Below, piece after piece: positions 1 to 64,000 of a DNA stretch of 64,000 nucleotides. The notes beneath the pieces are model-generated. The model had not been told where the DNA came from and did no database searches. It worked only from the letters and a program-made list of their open reading frames with translations. The position numbers were made by a program, and so were the translations under genes. How positions within the stretch are numbered: position 1 is the stretch's first letter; each line of letters begins with the position of its first letter. The DNA comes from Ciconia boyciana (Eukaryota). The stretch lies in contig NC_132969.1 in NCBI RefSeq assembly GCF_034638445.1, positions 319,423 through 383,422 on the forward strand. The letters run 5' to 3'.

Positions 1-2700
1 CTGTGGGTCGCTTGGGGGCAGAGGACGGAGCTCTGGGGCGCTTGTGGGGCTGAGCCTGGGGCGCTTGTGGGGCAGAGCGCAGAGCCCTGGGGCACTTGGG
101 GGCAGAGGACGGAGCTCTGGGGCGCTTGTGGGGCTGAGCCTGGGGCGCTTGTGGGGCAGAGCGCAGAGCCCTGGGGCACTTGGGGGGCAGAGGACGGAGC
201 TCTGGGGCGCTTGTGGGGCTGAGCCTGGGGCGCTTGTGGGGCTGAGCCTGGGGCGCTTGTGGGGCAGAGCTTGGCCTTGTGGGGCAGAGCCTGGAGCTCT
301 GGGTCGCTTGTGGGGCAGAGCACGGAGCCCTGGGGCACTTGTGGGGCTGAGCCCGGGTCACTTGTGGGGCAGAGCATGGAGCTCTGGGTCGCTTGTGGGG
401 CAGAGCTCGGCCTTGTGGGGCAGAGCACAGAGCCCTGGGGCACTTGTGGGGCTGAGCCTGGGTCACTTGTGGGGCAGAGCACGGAGCCCTGGGTGCCCTG
501 TGGGGCAGGACATGGGTTACTTGTGGGGCAGAGCATGGAGGCCCTGGTCACTTGTGGGGCTGAGCCTGGTCCTCTGGGTCCCCTCTGGGACTTGTGGGGC
601 AGAGCTTGGCCTTGTGGGGCAGGGGATGGAGCCCTGGCTCACTTGTGGGGCAGGGTCTGGATCCCTGGGTCGCTTGTGGGGCTGAGCCTGGTCCTCTGGG
701 TCCCGTCTGGGACTTGTGGGGCAGAGCTAGGGTCACTTGTGGGGCAGAGTTTGGCCTTGTGGGGCAGGGGATGGAGCCCTGGGGCACTTGTGGGGCAGAG
801 CATGGAGGCCCAGGTCACTTGTGGGGCTGAGCCTGGTCCTCTGGGTCCCCTCTGGGACTTGTGGGGCAGAGCTTGGCCTTGTGGGGCAGGGGATGGAGCC
901 CTGGCTCACTTGTGGGGCAGAGCCTGGGTCACTTGTGGGGCAGGGTCTGGATCCCTGGGTCGCTTGTGGGGCTGAGCCTGGTCCTCTGGGTCCCGTCTGG
1001 GACTTGTGGGGCAGAGCTAGGGTCACTTGTGGGGCAGAGTTTGGCCTTGTGGGGCAGGGGATGGAGCCCTGGGGCACTTGTGGGGCAGAGCATGGAGGCC
1101 CAGGTCACTTGTGGGGCTGAGCCTGGTCCTCTGGGTCCCCTCTGGGACTTGTGGGGCAGAGCTTGGCCTTGTGGGGCAGGGGATGGAGCCCTGGCTCACT
1201 TGTGGGGCAGAGCCTGGGTCACTTGTGGGGCAGGGTCTGGATCCCTGGGTCGCTTGTGGGGCTGAGCCTGGTCCTCTGGGTCCCGTCTGGGACTTGTGGG
1301 GCAGAGCTAGGGTCACTTGTGGGGCAGAGTTTGGCCTTGTGGGGCAGGGGATGGAGCCCTGGGGCACTTGTGGGGCAGAGCATGGAGGCCCAGGTCACTT
1401 GTGGGGCTGAGCCTGGTCCTCTGGGTCCCCTCTGGGACTTGTGGGGCAGAGCTTGGCCTTGTGGGGCAGGGGATGGAGCCCTGGCTCACTTGTGGGGCAG
1501 AGCCTGGGTCACTTGTGGGGCAGGGTCTGGATCCCTGGGTCGCTTGTGGGGCTGAGCCTGGTCCTCTGGGTCCCGTCTGGGACTTGTGGGGCAGAGCTAG
1601 GGTCACTTGTGGGGCAGAGCTTGGCCTTGTGGGGCAGGGGATGGAGCCCTGGGTGCCCTGTGGGGTAGTGGGACTTGTGGGGCAGAGCTTGGCTCACTTG
1701 TGGGGCAGAGCCTGGCCCTCTGGCTCCCCTCTGGGACTTGTGGGGCAGAGCCTGGGCCCTGGGTGCCCTGTGGGGCAGTGCGACTTGTGGGGCAGAGTCT
1801 GGATCCTTGCTCCCCTTTGGCACTTATGGGGCAGAGCGTGGGTCACTTGTGGGGCAGAGCTGGGACCCCGGGTCCCCTCTGGGACTTGTGGGGCAGAGCC
1901 TGGATCTCAGGGTGCCTTGTGGGGCAGCGTGGGTCACTTGTGGGGCAGAGCCCGCACCCCTGGGCTGCTTGTGGGACTTAGGGGGCAGAGCTTGGCTCAC
2001 TTGTGGGGCAGAGCTGGGACCCCTGGGTCACTTGTGGGGCAGAGCCCAGATCTCTGAGTCTCCTTATGGACTTGTGGGGCAGAGTCTGGACCCCTGGGTC
2101 ACTTGTGGGGCAGAGATGAGACCCTCTCAGTCTCCTGGGTCACTTGTGGGGCAGAACCTGGACCCCAGGCCACTTGTGGGACTTATGGGGCAGAGCTTGG
2201 CTCACTTGTGGGGCAGAGTCTGGACCCCTGGGTCACTTGTGGGGCAGAGCCTGGACCCCAGCTTCCCTCAGGGACTTGTGGGGCAGACTCAGGGCCACTT
2301 GTGGGGCAGAGTCCGGACCCCTGGGCTGCTTGTGGGACTTATGGGGCAGAGCTTGGCTCACTTGTGGGGCAGAGCTGGGACCCCCAGGTCACTTGTGGGG
2401 CAGAGCTGAGACCCCTGAGTCCCCTTATGGACTTGTAGAGCAGAGCCTGCACCCCTGGGTCACTTGTGGGGCAGAGCCTGGACCCTGAATCCCCTCCGGC
2501 ACTTGTGGGGCAGAGCTGGGACCCCCAGGTCACTTGTGGGGCAGAGCCTGGACCCTGAATCCCCTCCGGCACTTGTGGGGCAGAGCTGGGACCCCCAGGT
2601 CACTTGTGGGGCAGAGCTGGGACCCCTGAGTCCCCTTATGGACTTGTGGAGCAGAGCCCGCACCCCTGGGTCACTTGTGGGGCAGAACCTGGACCCCGAA
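1..2700. repeat. Tandem minisatellite, about 29-30-bp units (cacttgtggggcagagcctggacccctgggt) organised in a 290-bp higher-order repeat
   Basis: Identical ORF translations recur at 737, 1027, 1317 and 1607 (+) and at 733, 1023 (-), giving an exact 290-bp period. The plus strand is G-rich. The array lies upstream of the first TAOK2 coding exon and is probably its 5-prime UTR intron. Confidence 0.9.
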
Positions 2701-2782
2701 TCCCCTCCGGCACTTGTGGGGCAGAGCCCGCCTCCCCGGCGCCTCAGCCCCACGGAATCTGTGGGTCCCCCCAGCCGCCGCC

Positions 2783-2914
2783 ATGCCCTCCAACGCTCGC
2801 GCCGGCAGCTTGAAGGATCCCGAAGTGGCCGAACTCTTTTTTAAAGAAGATCCCGAAAAACTTTTCGGGGACCTGCGGGAAATCGGCCACGGCAGCTTCG
2901 GGGCCGTCTACTTC
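2783..2914 (+). CDS. TAOK2: TAOK2 coding exon 1 (N-terminus, kinase glycine loop)
   Basis: ATG in context gccgccATGc. Translation [44 protein letters not shown] is near-identical to human TAOK2 residues 1-44, with the GHGSFG glycine loop. GTGAGT donor at 2915. A possible 5-prime UTR acceptor cccccAG sits at 2773-2774. Confidence 0.9.
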
Positions 2915-3023
2915 GTGAGTGCCCCCCAAGTACCCCCCCCAAGCGCCCCCTAAGTTCTCCCCCTGCCCTGCCCCACACATTTCACCCCCTTTTTTTAAAT
3001 TTTTTTTTAATTTCTTTTCTGAG

Positions 3024-3095
3024 GCGCGGGACATGCGCACTAACGAGGTGGTGGCGATTAAGAAGATGTCGTACAGCGGGAAGCAATCGAACGAG
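3024..3095 (+). CDS. TAOK2: TAOK2 coding exon 2
   Basis: Acceptor tttctgAG, donor GTGAAG. Translation ARDMRTNEVVAIKKMSYSGKQSNE, including the VAIK lysine. The exon is 72 nt, phase 0. Confidence 0.9.
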
Positions 3096-61890: not shown

Positions 61891-61966
61891 GGGGGGGGGG
61901 GGCAGAAGCTGGAATCAGGGGGTCCCCGGCGGGGGAGGGGCGGGGGAGGGGCGGGGGGAGGGGTAC

Positions 61967-62121
61967 CGTCCAGACGTGGCCCTGGGTGCTCATGTCGCAG
62001 TAGACGGGGAGCGGGGTCCCCCCCGCCCCGCTCGGGGACACCAAGTAGACGCCGTCGGCTCGGGCCCCCGGCGTAGACGTCCTGGCAGTCGCGGGGGACA
62101 GGGGGGGGGCGCAGAGGGGGG
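61967..62121 (-). CDS. FReD gene coding exon (start of fibrinogen domain) carrying an internal 1-nt frame shift
   Basis: Minus-strand acceptor tctcccccAG and donor GTACCC. One frame reads ...[19 protein letters not shown], then after a 1-nt frame slip in gggggcccgagcc it reads [33 protein letters not shown]. Compare angiopoietin RDCADVYQAG...SGIYTIY...VFCNMDVNGGGWTV and ficolin NCKDLLDRG...TIYLPD...VLCDMDTDGGGWTV. The exon begins in phase 2, so upstream exons exist (in repeats or beyond 64000). Confidence 0.65.
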
Positions 62122-62124
62122 CTG

Positions 62125-64000
62125 GGGGAGATGGGGACGTTGGGGACAGCGGGGACAGCGGGGACAGGGGGACATTGGGGACAGCAGGGACGTGGGGGAC
62201 GTGGGGGACGTGGGGGATGTGGGGGACATCGGGGACAGCGGGGACAGGGGGGACAGGGGGACGGGGGGACAGGGGGGCAGGGGGATGTCGGGGACATGGG
62301 GGACGTGGGGGACATCGGGGACAGCGGGGACAGGGGGACGTGGGGGACGTCGGGGATGTTGGGGACAGAGGGGACAGGGGGGCAGGGGGGACAGGGGGAT
62401 GTCGGGGACATGGGGGACGTCGGGGACAGCAGGGACAGCGGGGACAGCGGGGACAGGGGGACAGCGGGGACGTGGGGGACATCGGGGACAGGGGGATGTC
62501 AGGGACCTTGGGGACATGGGGGACGTTGGGGACGTGGGGGACAGTGGGGACGTGGGGGACGTGGGGGATGTTGGGGACAGCGGGGACGTGGGGGACGTCG
62601 GGGACGTGGGGGACATCGGGGACGTTGGGGACATGGGGGACGTTGGGGACGTGGGGGACAGCGGGGACGTGGGGGACGTCGGGGACAGTGGGGACATGGG
62701 GGACAGTGGGGACATGGGGGACAGCAGGGACATGGGGGACAGCGGGGACAGGGGGACATCGGGGACATGGGGGACGTGGGGGACATTGGGGACAGCGGGG
62801 ACGTGGGGGACGTCAGGGATGTTGGGGACAGCGGGGACAGGGGGGACAGGGGGATGTCAGGGATGTGGGGGACGTCGGGGACAGGGGGGACGTCGGGGAC
62901 CTTGGGGACATGGGGGACGTTGGGGACGTGGGGGACAGTGGGGACGTGGGGGATGTGGGGGACGTCGGGGACACGGGGGACATCAGGGACAGTGGGGACA
63001 TGGGGGACAGCGGGGACAGGGGGACAGGGGGACAGCGGGGACGTGGGGGACGTCGGGGACAGGGGGACGTCGGGGACGTGGGGGACATCGGGGACGTGGG
63101 GACATGGGGGACAGGGGGGACAGCAGGGGCAGGGGGGATGTCGGGGACATGGGGGACGTGGGGGACGTCAGGGATGTTGGGGACATCGGGGACAGCGGGG
63201 ACGTGGGGGATGTCAGGGATGTGGGGGACGTCGGGGACATGGGGGACATTGGGGACAGTGGGGACGTGGGGGACGTCGGGGATGCGGGGGATGTCGGGGA
63301 CATGGGGGACAGTGGGGACGTGGGGACAGTGGGGGACAGGGGGACATGGGGGAGAGTGGGGACGTTGGGGACATGGGGGACAGGGGGGCAGCGGGGATGT
63401 TGGGGACATTGGGGACGTCAGGGACAAGGGGGACAGGGGGACAGCAGGGACATGGGGGACGTCAGGGACAGCAGGGACGTGGGGGACGTCGGGGACACGG
63501 GGGATGTTGGGGACAGGGGGGACAGCGGGGACGCAGGGGACGTCGGGGACGTTGGGGACAGTGGGGACGTTGGGGACATCGGGGACAGGGGGACATGGGG
63601 GAGAGTGGGGACGTCAGGGACATGGGGGATGGGGGGGACATGGGGGCAGTGGGGACATGGGGGATGTTGGGGACATGGGGGACAGGGGGGCAGCGGGGAT
63701 GTTGGGGATGTTGGGGACATCGGGGACAAGGGGGACATGGGGGCATTGGGGACATGGGGGACGTTGGGGACATCGGGGACAGGGGGGACGTGGGGACGTG
63801 GGGGAGAGTGGGGACGTTGGGGACATCGGGGACAGGGCAGACATGGGGGGCAGTGGGGACAGTGGGGACATCGGGGACATTGGGGACGTCAGGGACAGGA
63901 GGGACATGGGGACAGTGGGGACATTGGGGGCAGTGGGGACATGGGGACGTTGGGGACATTGGGGACATGGGGGACACGGGGGCAGTGGGGACATTGGGGA
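62125..64000. repeat. 9-bp minisatellite (ggggacgtg / ggggacagc / ggggacatc)n
   Basis: About 200 iterations of GGGGACRYN reaching the window end. No stop codon was seen in any of the six frames. One plus-strand frame reads (G-D-X)n and the minus-strand frames read (S/M/V)P(T/A/L)SP. Confidence 0.9.

Follow-up and report, generated by a model that had tools for sequence, protein, structure and literature searches.

Background

The closest described counterpart of the locus reported here is 'sequence stuttering', a state named in the dot chromosomes of chicken by Hron et al. (Genome Biol Evol 2026, PMC12954441; bioRxiv 2025). The introns on these chromosomes carry one or several locally expanded imperfect tandem repeats that are isolated between the exons, with the coding sequence left intact, and in exon stuttering the lateral part of an exon is copied together with its splice site into the adjacent intron (scores above 42.1 bits). 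Intron length varies within chicken, an independent expansion in each species was inferred, and stuttering was found in no other vertebrate except gerbils (PMC12954441). For the zebra finch, two studies (10.1101/2025.10.17.683159; telomere-to-telomere genome, 10.1101/2025.10.14.682431) report dot-chromosome introns with more than 70% tandem repeats, the units being multiples of 10-11 bp, and an enrichment of G-quadruplex (G4) motifs on the coding strand of introns. The present study concerns a 64-kb stretch of the Oriental stork, Ciconia boyciana (GCF_034638445.1, contig NC_132969.1, positions 319,423 to 383,422 of the forward strand; hereafter the window, numbered from its first letter), in which four conserved genes, TAOK2, CDIPT, PRRT2 and MFAP4, are embedded in tandem arrays. 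An earlier note, made from the sequence alone, had drawn attention to these arrays.

The stork arrays resemble chicken stuttering in several respects. The introns hold local arrays, with units of tens to hundreds of base pairs, that are bounded by exons; intergenic spacers are affected as well and lengths differ among relatives. Arrays are isolated within single introns and the open reading frames (ORFs) of TAOK2 and CDIPT are intact, the exceptions being three simple-motif families that are shared and a repeat inside a PRRT2 exon, and copies of the edge of TAOK2 exon 12 score above the 42.1 bits applied in chicken. TAOK2, CDIPT and PRRT2 are, however, found neither in the main text nor in the searchable supplementary text of that report (PMC12954441). 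The stork also resembles the zebra finch in the array content of its long introns (91%) and in periods near multiples of 10 bp. Its G4 bases show a twofold excess on the sense strand, but five large arrays have almost none and three introns carry theirs on the template strand. The zebra finch work is genome-wide and centred on non-B motifs, and its accessible part does not address the privacy of arrays per intron, exon stuttering or array orthology. The chicken work gave stuttering its name and the zebra finch work quantified it, both in 2025-26, so that the phenomenon was already in print and its finding in the stork window is an independent rediscovery in a third, distant bird. What goes beyond these descriptions is the deep positional orthology of some arrays, introns of two states, an intermediate turtle and a negative result for G4 motifs and hairpins as a common cause.

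Human minisatellites of the Jeffreys type, or variable-number tandem repeats, are GC-rich, subtelomeric and hypervariable, with units of 10-60 bp, strand asymmetry, length polymorphism and a turnover by unequal exchange and gene conversion. A GGGCAGG-containing motif likewise recurs in 8 of the 39 stork array blocks; unlike these scattered single loci, the stork arrays replace almost all the non-coding DNA of consecutive genes and have no single shared core. The satellite-filled giant introns of the Drosophila Y-linked fertility genes, a known type of intron-length variation mentioned by Hron et al. (PMC12954441), are also largely tandem satellite with exons and splicing preserved. They are, however, megabase-sized, heterochromatic, built of simple satellites, non-recombining and testis-specific, whereas the stork arrays measure 0.5-6 kb and occupy what appears to be the GC-rich euchromatin of a recombining microchromosome, among genes of the housekeeping type.

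Methods

The stork data represent one haplotype and a single 64-kb window. Tandem arrays were called with Tandem Repeats Finder (TRF) at scores of at least 50 and periods up to 2000 bp, and blocks were merged at scores of at least 100. The exons of TAOK2 were placed by tblastn with TAO2 proteins, six-frame ORFs outside the arrays and a junction search; exon-stuttering copies were located by BLAST of the exon plus its flanks. Arrays of other species were compared against 21 segments of the stork window. TRF coverage in ruff is given as the fraction of non-gap bases. The cormorant locus, which has only TAOK2 exons 6-8 upstream of CDIPT and 400 N, was left out of the TAOK2 intron comparison, and the comparison of TAOK2 intron 17 was made without chicken, tinamou and sparrow, in which TAOK2 does not lie upstream of CDIPT in the stretches examined.

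Results and discussion

Tandem arrays occupy most of the non-coding DNA

A first TRF run returned 540 rows. The run with periods up to 2000 bp covers 81.4% of the window (49% by rows scoring at least 1000 alone), as against 1.7-2.7% in five shuffled copies that kept the local dinucleotide content. After addition of the gene models, tandem arrays make up 88.8% of the 57.5 kb of non-coding DNA, which leaves 6.46 kb unique; the earlier note had described unique non-exonic DNA as almost absent, and with 89% array the non-exonic DNA is indeed far from mostly unique. Merging gave 39 array blocks, close to the 35 or so of the earlier note. GC content ranges from 0.51 to 0.75 across the window and unit identity from 62 to 97% across the arrays. 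TRF recovered base periods of 9, 10, 11, 20-21, 30-31, 51 and 60-62 bp and higher-order periods of 173-175, 181, 290, 499, 545, 616 and 629 bp, among them the lengths of 9, 11, 21, 30, 60-62, 175, 290 and about 630 bp that had been read from the sequence before. Higher-order repeats of high identity include the 290-bp (3.8 copies, 97%), 629-bp (2.4 copies, 95%) and 173-bp (3.9 copies, 94%) periods, and the 86 copies of the 62-bp unit of TAOK2 intron 11 are 93% identical.

The arrays are largely private, as had been proposed. Self-BLAST matches (E<=1e-5) fall almost exclusively inside the same block; the claim needs qualification for some simple-motif families that recur in different introns. 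A ~10-mer family, GAGGGACTGG, is common to CDIPT introns 1 and 5 and MFAP4 intron 2, the GGGGCAGGGTGTGGGG family in PRRT2 intron 1 is the reverse complement of an array in MFAP4 intron 2, and the units of TAOK2 introns 10 and 11, on either side of exon 11, share an 18/19-nt core, CCACCACCGTGGG(G)ACGTC; neighbouring blocks inside one intron also cross-match. A core shared by all the arrays was not found, no 8-mer being present at three or more copies in more than 11 of the 39 blocks; the most widespread repeated 8-mers are plain G/C runs, and TGGGGCAG occurs in 8 blocks only. The privacy of the arrays, together with the orthologue-specific matches described below, argues for units of local origin rather than units derived from interspersed repeats.

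A property that the arrays do have in common is a quantum of unit length. In the 39 blocks, primary periods gather at multiples of about 10 bp (Rayleigh R = 0.62 at T = 10.0, with all of 5000 jittered nulls below this value). The autocorrelation over the whole window has its peaks at 10, 20, 30-31, 51, 62, 81, 93, 102 and 124, and the clustering holds among arrays that are unrelated in sequence.

Two size classes of introns and the edges of the arrays

All 26 modelled introns are GT-AG (TAOK2 17, CDIPT 5, PRRT2 1, MFAP4 3) and they fall into two classes. The long class comprises 17 introns of 781-6571 bp that are 91% array, the exception being CDIPT intron 2 (26%); the nine introns of the short class measure 77-116 bp and are 19.5% TRF-covered overall, with five of the nine at 0%. 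The statement of the earlier note that practically every intron is filled by an array thus holds for the 17 introns above 700 bp and not for the nine short ones. This strict alternative of a minimal intron of ~80-110 bp or an array-filled one, with none between, goes beyond the chicken and zebra finch descriptions.

The distance from an array edge to the splice site is 0-138 bp at donors and 2-310 bp at acceptors (median ~40 bp). The two boundaries quoted in the earlier note were confirmed: the array at 24391-24915 stops 23 bp before the acceptor of TAOK2 exon 15 (exon start 24939) and that at 50769-52799 stops 3 bp from the PRRT2 donor (exon edge 52803). The PRRT2 intron 1 arrays come within 3-6 bp of both splice sites, and in PRRT2 intron 1 and MFAP4 intron 2 array sequence continues right up to the acceptor.

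Seeding of arrays beside splice sites is supported by two observations. A segment made up of the last 38 bp of TAOK2 exon 12, the GT donor and 30 bp of intron recurs at least seven times in intron 12 (at 17997, 18148, 18460, 18610, 18733, 18870 and 19041) with 81-91% identity and 60-93 bits, and the arrays of CDIPT introns 1 and 5 start inside the donor GTGAGGGACTGG. The units of TAOK2 intron 5 resemble the 3' splice-site motif CTGCCCCACAG. For TAOK2 intron 17, comparison of the unit with the adjacent exon edges gave no convincing similarity, a result with which an independent re-seeding of these units would remain compatible.

Several acceptors resemble array units. These are CTGCCCCATAG/CTGCCCCACAG at TAOK2 introns 2, 5 and 7 (3174-3188, 6004-6018, 6368-6382) and GCCGTGGGGCAG at TAOK2 intron 13 (20771-20785) and PRRT2 intron 1 (49242-49290), and such acceptor-like motifs double as repeat units of the nearby arrays 5106-5916, 4909-4957 and 49248-50339. 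This suggests that arrays may be seeded from 3' splice-site regions, or that arrays may supply those regions.

Orthologous loci in birds, turtle and lizard

Arrays are present at the orthologous loci of all the related birds compared, with TRF coverage of 83% in wood stork, 71% in cormorant, 77% in ruff, 52% in kiwi, 67% in emu, 88% in chicken, 80% in tinamou and 81% in sparrow, the last at a GC content of only 0.45. Coverage falls to 31% in the green turtle (GC 0.64) and to 1.6% in the lizard Phrynocephalus (GC 0.46). Because the lizard is nearly free of them, the arrays are regarded as expansions derived on the turtle/bird side and not as ancestral intron content. In the turtle one CDIPT intron (intron 5) is 89% array, introns 1 and 4 having none. 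The turtle locus is a mild form of the stuttering state outside birds, contrary to the published non-observation in vertebrates other than gerbils. This CDIPT-PRRT2 locus (CM026903.2:866718-891824) is situated on a 134-Mb chromosome, 0.87 Mb from its end. The white-throated sparrow CDIPT-like locus (CM106254.1:333751-364492) is built of AT-rich units such as ATTTTGGGTGATTTTGGG, and array filling at 45% GC means that high GC is not needed for it.

Individual array families can be followed between species. In the wood stork all six compared segments match their own stork orthologue best by a wide margin, with lengths up to 2.4-fold apart: CDIPT intron 2 measures 838 bp in the stork and 2013 bp in the wood stork, which has 86 copies of a GGGCGGGGCTTGGGGAG-type unit. 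Among the 21 segments, wood stork TAOK2 introns 16 and 17 match only the orthologous stork intron (2959 bits for intron 17), as do TAOK2 introns 10 and 11 of ruff. The 31-bp array of cormorant MFAP4 intron 3 finds its best match in stork MFAP4 intron 3 (433 bits, 71.6% over 876 bp), and the sole match of emu TAOK2 intron 17 is stork intron 17 (800 bits, 70% over 2122 bp), where the units of 30 and 31 bp in emu and stork, respectively, have their first 15 nt identical. The top-scoring pairs of consensus units are the orthologous ones, and the same 10-mer array stands at or near the donor of CDIPT intron 1 in stork, wood stork, cormorant, emu and sparrow; at that position the green turtle has a single GGGGAGCTGGGGGG. 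Storks, ruff, cormorant and emu thus have the same array family in orthologous introns, in contrast to the independent expansion per species inferred from chicken. Which introns are expanded differs by lineage, CDIPT intron 3 being 967 bp in stork vs 86 bp in emu and CDIPT intron 4 being 77 bp in stork vs 590 bp in chicken.

In ruff intron 11 (KQ482927.1, 273-1576 of the intron) a 652-bp block is present in duplicate with 100% identity, owing either to a very recent event or to an artefact of short-read assembly.

Chromosome context

The gene order TAOK2 > CDIPT > PRRT2 < MFAP4 < recurs on a 1.56-Mb cormorant chromosome, and TAOK2, CDIPT and MFAP4 stand in the same order on a 3.3-Mb emu chromosome, at whose locus PRRT2 was not found. 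An identical CDIPT protein is encoded on a 912-kb Ciconia contig, and MFAP4 lies on chicken dot chromosome 38, where it is listed as an exon-stuttering gene (Hron et al., PMC12954441). The size of the Ciconia contig and the synteny with small chromosomes of cormorant and emu and with chicken chromosome 38 indirectly suggest that the window belongs to the euchromatin of a stork dot microchromosome. The earlier view of the locus as GC-rich 'dark matter' DNA of a micro- or dot chromosome, with introns expanded by local satellites and splice signals kept, is supported by the published work and by the arrays measured here.

TAOK2 and CDIPT are separated by 834 bp from stop to start codon (39814-40647) and also adjoin in wood stork, cormorant and emu. 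The genes situated between the two in human (TMEM219, KCTD13, ASPHD1, SEZ6L2) are absent here. In the green turtle the 10 kb upstream of CDIPT contain no TAOK2, and CDIPT has other neighbours in chicken, tinamou and sparrow. In Nicobar pigeon and parrot the 'TAO2' genes apparently share a contig with CDIPT (the parrot matches being named for the sister species Pezoporus flaviventris and P. wallicus).

Probable origin of the arrays

The window very probably represents the published state of sequence stuttering, in which local tandem amplification is bounded by splice sites and array families are inherited with turnover. Short local sequences in an intron or spacer would be duplicated in tandem repeatedly, often seeded beside a splice site and occasionally including an exon edge, and whole multi-unit blocks have then been re-duplicated, giving imperfect minisatellites with higher-order periods. 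The amplifier may be out-of-register recombination or repair, by way of unequal exchange, gene conversion or a template switch during replication or repair, a process that a highly recombining, GC-rich chromosome with open chromatin would favour. Purifying selection on exons, donors, branch sites and acceptors would halt each array at the splice signals; each intron would therefore be a concerted-evolution compartment of its own and look 'private'. Unique intronic DNA had probably already been reduced to ~80-110 bp per intron before expansion, as in the nine unexpanded introns, so that nearly all the remaining non-coding DNA would be array. The families are inherited, with changes of copy number, higher-order structure and unit sequence from one species to the next, and a family can stay at one intron over tens of millions of years; at least two introns seem to have kept theirs since the ancestor of emu and stork.

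Block re-duplication is illustrated by TAOK2 intron 11. Its 62-bp unit is a dimer of diverged 31-mers, older 29/31-bp monomers (CCACCACCGTGGGGACGTC...) remain at the 5' edge, and the pairwise identity of anchored, aligned units is ~0.93 whatever their distance, falling to 0.87 only at the edges.

Several points weigh against this interpretation. The CDIPT introns of chicken, tinamou and green turtle have no specific array family in common with the stork; replacement therefore also happens and inheritance is not universal. Emu MFAP4 intron 2 matches the non-orthologous stork array 62123-64000, and since G-rich arrays of 9-10-mers cross-match at non-orthologous positions in this way, likeness between such simple motifs is a poor guide to homology. 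It is also conceivable in principle that one conserved local seed gave rise to the similar units of emu and stork separately in each lineage. The sequence alone does not separate meiotic unequal exchange or gene conversion from mitotic slippage in replication or repair, so that the process named above is a presumed one; accurate splicing is assumed from the intact ORFs and the identity with the NCBI model, and the assignment to the dot-chromosome class is indirect.

The alternative that survives best, although we consider it unlikely as a general cause, is instability driven by DNA structure, whereby G-quadruplexes or hairpins stall replication and the repair of breaks yields local duplications, an explanation favoured by Hron et al. 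(PMC12954441) and by the zebra finch study. Canonical G4 motifs occur at 9.3 per kb, 2.2 times the expectation from local composition (594 vs 270 +/- 13), and cover 35-80% of 8 of the 17 long introns, and nearly all array units hold runs of four or more G or C. Five of the largest arrays (TAOK2 introns 3, 10, 11, 15 and 17; ~22 kb) nevertheless stand at 0-6% canonical G4, and the 5.4-kb 62-mer core of TAOK2 intron 11 has a GC content of only 51%. When 20 array samples were folded as single-stranded DNA, 18 had z values from -1.6 to +1.4, the exceptions being intron 10 (-4.8), where an inverted copy at 7500-7623 forms a long near-perfect hairpin (-36 kcal/mol), and the 62-mer of intron 11 (-2.6). 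As a common denominator of the arrays, G-quadruplexes were rejected for their near absence from those five arrays despite the enrichment, and hairpin or cruciform potential was rejected because the 18 samples fold no better than shuffles. DNA structure may contribute in some introns and is not common to all the arrays.

An independent and recent expansion in each species, with a likeness between species that arose by chance or because one conserved flank seeded arrays repeatedly, appears rather improbable. It would agree with the observation that orthologous introns of close species differ in structure and sequence (Hron et al., PMC12954441), with the CDIPT introns of chicken, tinamou and turtle, with the lineage-specific choice of expanded introns and with the youth of higher-order repeats at 93-97% identity. 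Against it stand the orthologue-specific matches over deep splits (emu intron 17; ruff introns 10 and 11; cormorant MFAP4 intron 3; the CDIPT intron 1 10-mer in five birds), each of four deep comparisons having matched only the orthologous segment among 21; young amplification and an old family are, moreover, compatible under concerted evolution.

The prospect that the arrays are kept for a function, as G-run intronic splicing enhancers, phased nucleosome or bent-DNA arrays or recombination hotspots of tiny chromosomes for which a crossover is obligate, is given a similarly small chance. Some array families do stay in place across deep bird splits, and unit lengths at ~10-bp multiples recur in sequence-unrelated arrays, as they do in zebra finch. 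Strand composition is uneven as well: the sense strand is G-rich in 13 of the 17 long introns, G4 motif bases number 7465 sense vs 3753 antisense, with three introns carrying G4 on the template strand, and acceptor-like motifs (Y8NYAG) in long introns number 4 sense vs 18 antisense. The strand bias is, however, weak (13 of 17, one-sided binomial ~0.025) with four introns opposite, counts of decoy sites are inflated by single repeated units, and donor-like motifs are not depleted (33 sense vs 17 antisense). Copy number varies twofold between the two storks and also within chicken (Hron et al., PMC12954441), nine introns and the lizard orthologue do without arrays, and neutral concerted evolution also predicts persistence.

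That the arrays are collapsed, expanded or chimeric long-read assembly errors over introns that are really short and unique is scarcely credible, even though GC-rich regions are hard to sequence and the two apparent 1-nt homopolymer frame breaks in MFAP4 and PRRT2 indicate that base-level errors may exist, because arrays stand at these loci in eight independent assemblies made with different technologies, because a given intron carries one and the same unit family in storks, ruff, cormorant and emu, and because the chicken arrays were verified in raw nanopore reads (Hron et al., PMC12954441), although exact copy numbers may still be off.

A more far-reaching reading, which extends local amplification and inheritance with turnover, is offered tentatively and is more doubtful than probable. 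The split of emu and stork is roughly 70-110 million years old. Array families would have been in place since before this split (the 30-31-bp unit of TAOK2 intron 17 and the 10-mer of CDIPT intron 1) and across Neoaves (TAOK2 introns 10 and 11, MFAP4 intron 3), with concerted turnover, unit lengths quantised near the helical turn and a constraint acting through chromatin or helical phasing, crossover assurance or the splicing of GC-rich introns; the onset would precede birds, the turtle being intermediate and the lizard having none.

Gene models and individual arrays

The features of the window are given in Table 1. TAOK2 has a coding sequence with a GC content of 0.67 (0.89 at third codon positions, GC3) and encodes a Pkinase domain (Pfam, E 3e-64); over its N-terminal 333 aa the protein shares 95% identity with TAO2 of lizard and 91% with that of fish. 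The ORF runs in frame past the donor of exon 15 for 279 codons, this extension is kept in lizard (55% over 190 aa, E 1e-43), cormorant and emu and includes the motif FPKTNKGGFRSRLP, and the arrays restart ~170 bp past its stop codon. The extension is thus the terminal exon of a long isoform and not intron, which explains why the largest non-repetitive stretch in any intron lies in TAOK2 intron 15. In exon 11 a (GAA)18 tract (10847-10901, +) lies inside a run of 32 consecutive glutamates. The 'TAO2' proteins of zebra finch, Nicobar pigeon and parrot are 70-75% identical to the stork kinase domain, as compared to 95% in lizard and 96-100% in ruff and kiwi; the low values may be due to mis-prediction or to very rapid sequence evolution in certain lineages of birds. 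In TAOK2 intron 16 the 9-mer array is followed by 30/100/121-bp units and then by a 51-bp unit (5.5 copies, 95%).

The CDIPT model (GC3 0.97; CDP-OH_P_transf domain in Pfam) is identical to XP_072705255.1 of Ciconia boyciana at 216 of 216 residues and thus reproduces the NCBI model; the protein is 97.6% identical to that of wood stork and 93% to that of cormorant.

The exon structure described as clean in the earlier note is borne out by the 26 GT-AG introns, but it is not fully confirmed for PRRT2 and MFAP4, since each has one apparent 1-nt frame break in a homopolymer run. In PRRT2, which carries a CD225 domain (Pfam, E 1.7e-19), the reading frame of the proline-rich N-terminal ORF (start candidate 53566) differs from that of the CD225 part; the break lies near 52922-52931 (within 52869-52990), in long G runs ~60 bp upstream of the transmembrane segment. 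The tiny last exon of PRRT2 was not located in the window. The repeat inside the proline-rich exon aligns weakly (66-67% over ~520 bp) to the spacer array 47505-49099.

The fourth gene, described previously as the 'FReD gene', does encode a fibrinogen domain (Fibrinogen_C, Pfam, E 2.6e-66) and can now be named MFAP4, its best match in the PDB being microfibril-associated glycoprotein 4 (7zmk/8un7, E 5e-117; next family 2e-73). At 62027-62090 (-) its frame changes after DCQDVYAGG at a GGGGGCCC run, an apparent 1-nt indel for which a homopolymer error of the assembly, a genuine frameshift or a splice that escaped recognition could each account. No signal-peptide exon was found in the window; it lies beyond or within the 62123-64000 array.

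Table 1. Genes, exons and tandem arrays of the 64-kb stork window
Feature	Position	Strand	Description
Array 5' of TAOK2 start codon	4-2728		base unit ~31 bp (CTTGTGGGGCAGAGC...), higher orders 145 and 290 bp (290 x 3.8, 97%)
TAOK2	2783-39813	+	18 coding exons, 997 aa; all junctions GT-AG, in frame
TAOK2 exons 1-9	2783-2914, 3024-3095, 3189-3290, 4851-4896, 4997-5093, 6019-6132, 6210-6301, 6383-6476, 6593-6674	+	
TAOK2 exons 10-18	6781-6948, 10700-10975, 17547-17897, 19500-19628, 20786-20989, 24939-25178, 31435-31641, 35165-35347, 39409-39813	+	
TAOK2 intron 3 array	3343-4666		unit ~30-31 bp (GTTGGGACCCACAGATGGGGTTTTGGGGC)
TAOK2 intron 5 array	5106-5916		173-bp higher order x 3.9, 94%; 3' end of 9 perfect GTCTGCCCCAC copies
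TAOK2 intron 10 arrays	7087-9030, 9230-10621		two related 51-bp arrays; inverted segment near 7500-7623
TAOK2 intron 11 array	10995-17443		core of 62-bp dimer x 86, 93% identity, GC only 0.51
Exon-stuttering copies, TAOK2 intron 12	17898-19100	+	~151-bp unit; BLAST of exon plus flanks
TAOK2 intron 13 array	19645-20748		C-rich, 58 and 181 bp; G4 motif on template strand over 75% of intron
TAOK2 intron 14 array 1	21037-23475		88/175/629 bp, CTATGGGGCAG...
TAOK2 intron 14 array 2	23634-24175		T/G-rich
TAOK2 intron 14 array 3	24391-24915		11-bp CTCCCCCTTAT
TAOK2 long-isoform alternative terminal coding exon	25179-26018	+	read-through of exon 15 donor
TAOK2 intron 15 arrays, 3' of long-isoform exon	26187-27337		20-22-bp units
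TAOK2 intron 15 arrays, continued	27450-31333		one family, periods 19/50/70/120 and 499 bp
TAOK2 intron 16 arrays	31665-35044		(GGTGGTGGT)n-like 9-mer x 184 from 23 bp past donor
TAOK2 intron 17 array	35420-39289		base ~30-31 bp (GTTTCGGGGCTCCCCAAGGGGGATT...), higher orders 207, 233, 616 bp
CDIPT	40648-45352	+	exons 40648-40693, 42085-42219, 43058-43211, 44179-44260, 44338-44419, 45201-45352
CDIPT intron 1 arrays	40696-42049		(GAGGGACTGG)n from inside donor GTGAGGGACTGG, then 83/173-bp array (CTGGGCCATACTGGG...)
CDIPT intron 2	42220-43057		26% TRF; only degenerate low-copy GGGCGGGGCTTGGGGAG units
CDIPT intron 3 arrays	43334-44043		87/181 bp and 19-20-bp unit (CTTATCCTCGGGGGCGGGGC)
CDIPT intron 5 array	44422-45065		(GAGGGACTGG)n, start at donor GTGAGGGACTGG
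CDIPT-PRRT2 spacer arrays (convergent genes)	45475-46404, 47505-49099		~1.1 kb weakly repetitive between
PRRT2	49107-53990	-	proline-rich exon ~53566 to 52803; CD225 exon 49241-49107
PRRT2 intron 1 array 1	49248-50339		11/32/86 bp, CCCCACGGCTG...
PRRT2 intron 1 arrays 2 and 3	50477-50601, 50769-52799		latter 12/142 bp
Tandem repeat inside proline-rich PRRT2 coding exon	52992-53489	-	periods 8-9, 18, 26 bp
Spacer array, PRRT2 5' end to MFAP4 3' end	54258-56338		545 bp x 2.9
MFAP4	56430-62095	-	exons 61967-62095, 61784-61880, 58608-58790, 56430-56677
MFAP4 intron 3 array	56724-58430		units 31 and 62 bp
MFAP4 intron 2 array 1	58793-59766		GGGGCAGGGTGTGGGG...; abuts acceptor, gives its sense-strand pyrimidine tract
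MFAP4 intron 2 array 2	59841-61635		(ACTGGGGGAT)n
Array upstream of first MFAP4 exon found	62123-64000		(TGGGGGACA)n 9-mer x 212, runs off window end

Conclusion

The window provides a clean, fully resolved comparative case of stuttering, with four conserved genes, 26 introns with exact boundaries and matched sauropsid loci from nine further species. Array families can be positionally orthologous over very deep bird splits while their copy number shifts twofold between genera, and the property common to the arrays is neither G-quadruplexes nor hairpins but a length quantum of ~10 bp. These results sharpen two questions, namely what drives stuttering and whether or not it is neutral. If true, the reading of persistent arrays quantised at ~10 bp would be notable, as the arrays would then not be ephemeral junk remade in each species.

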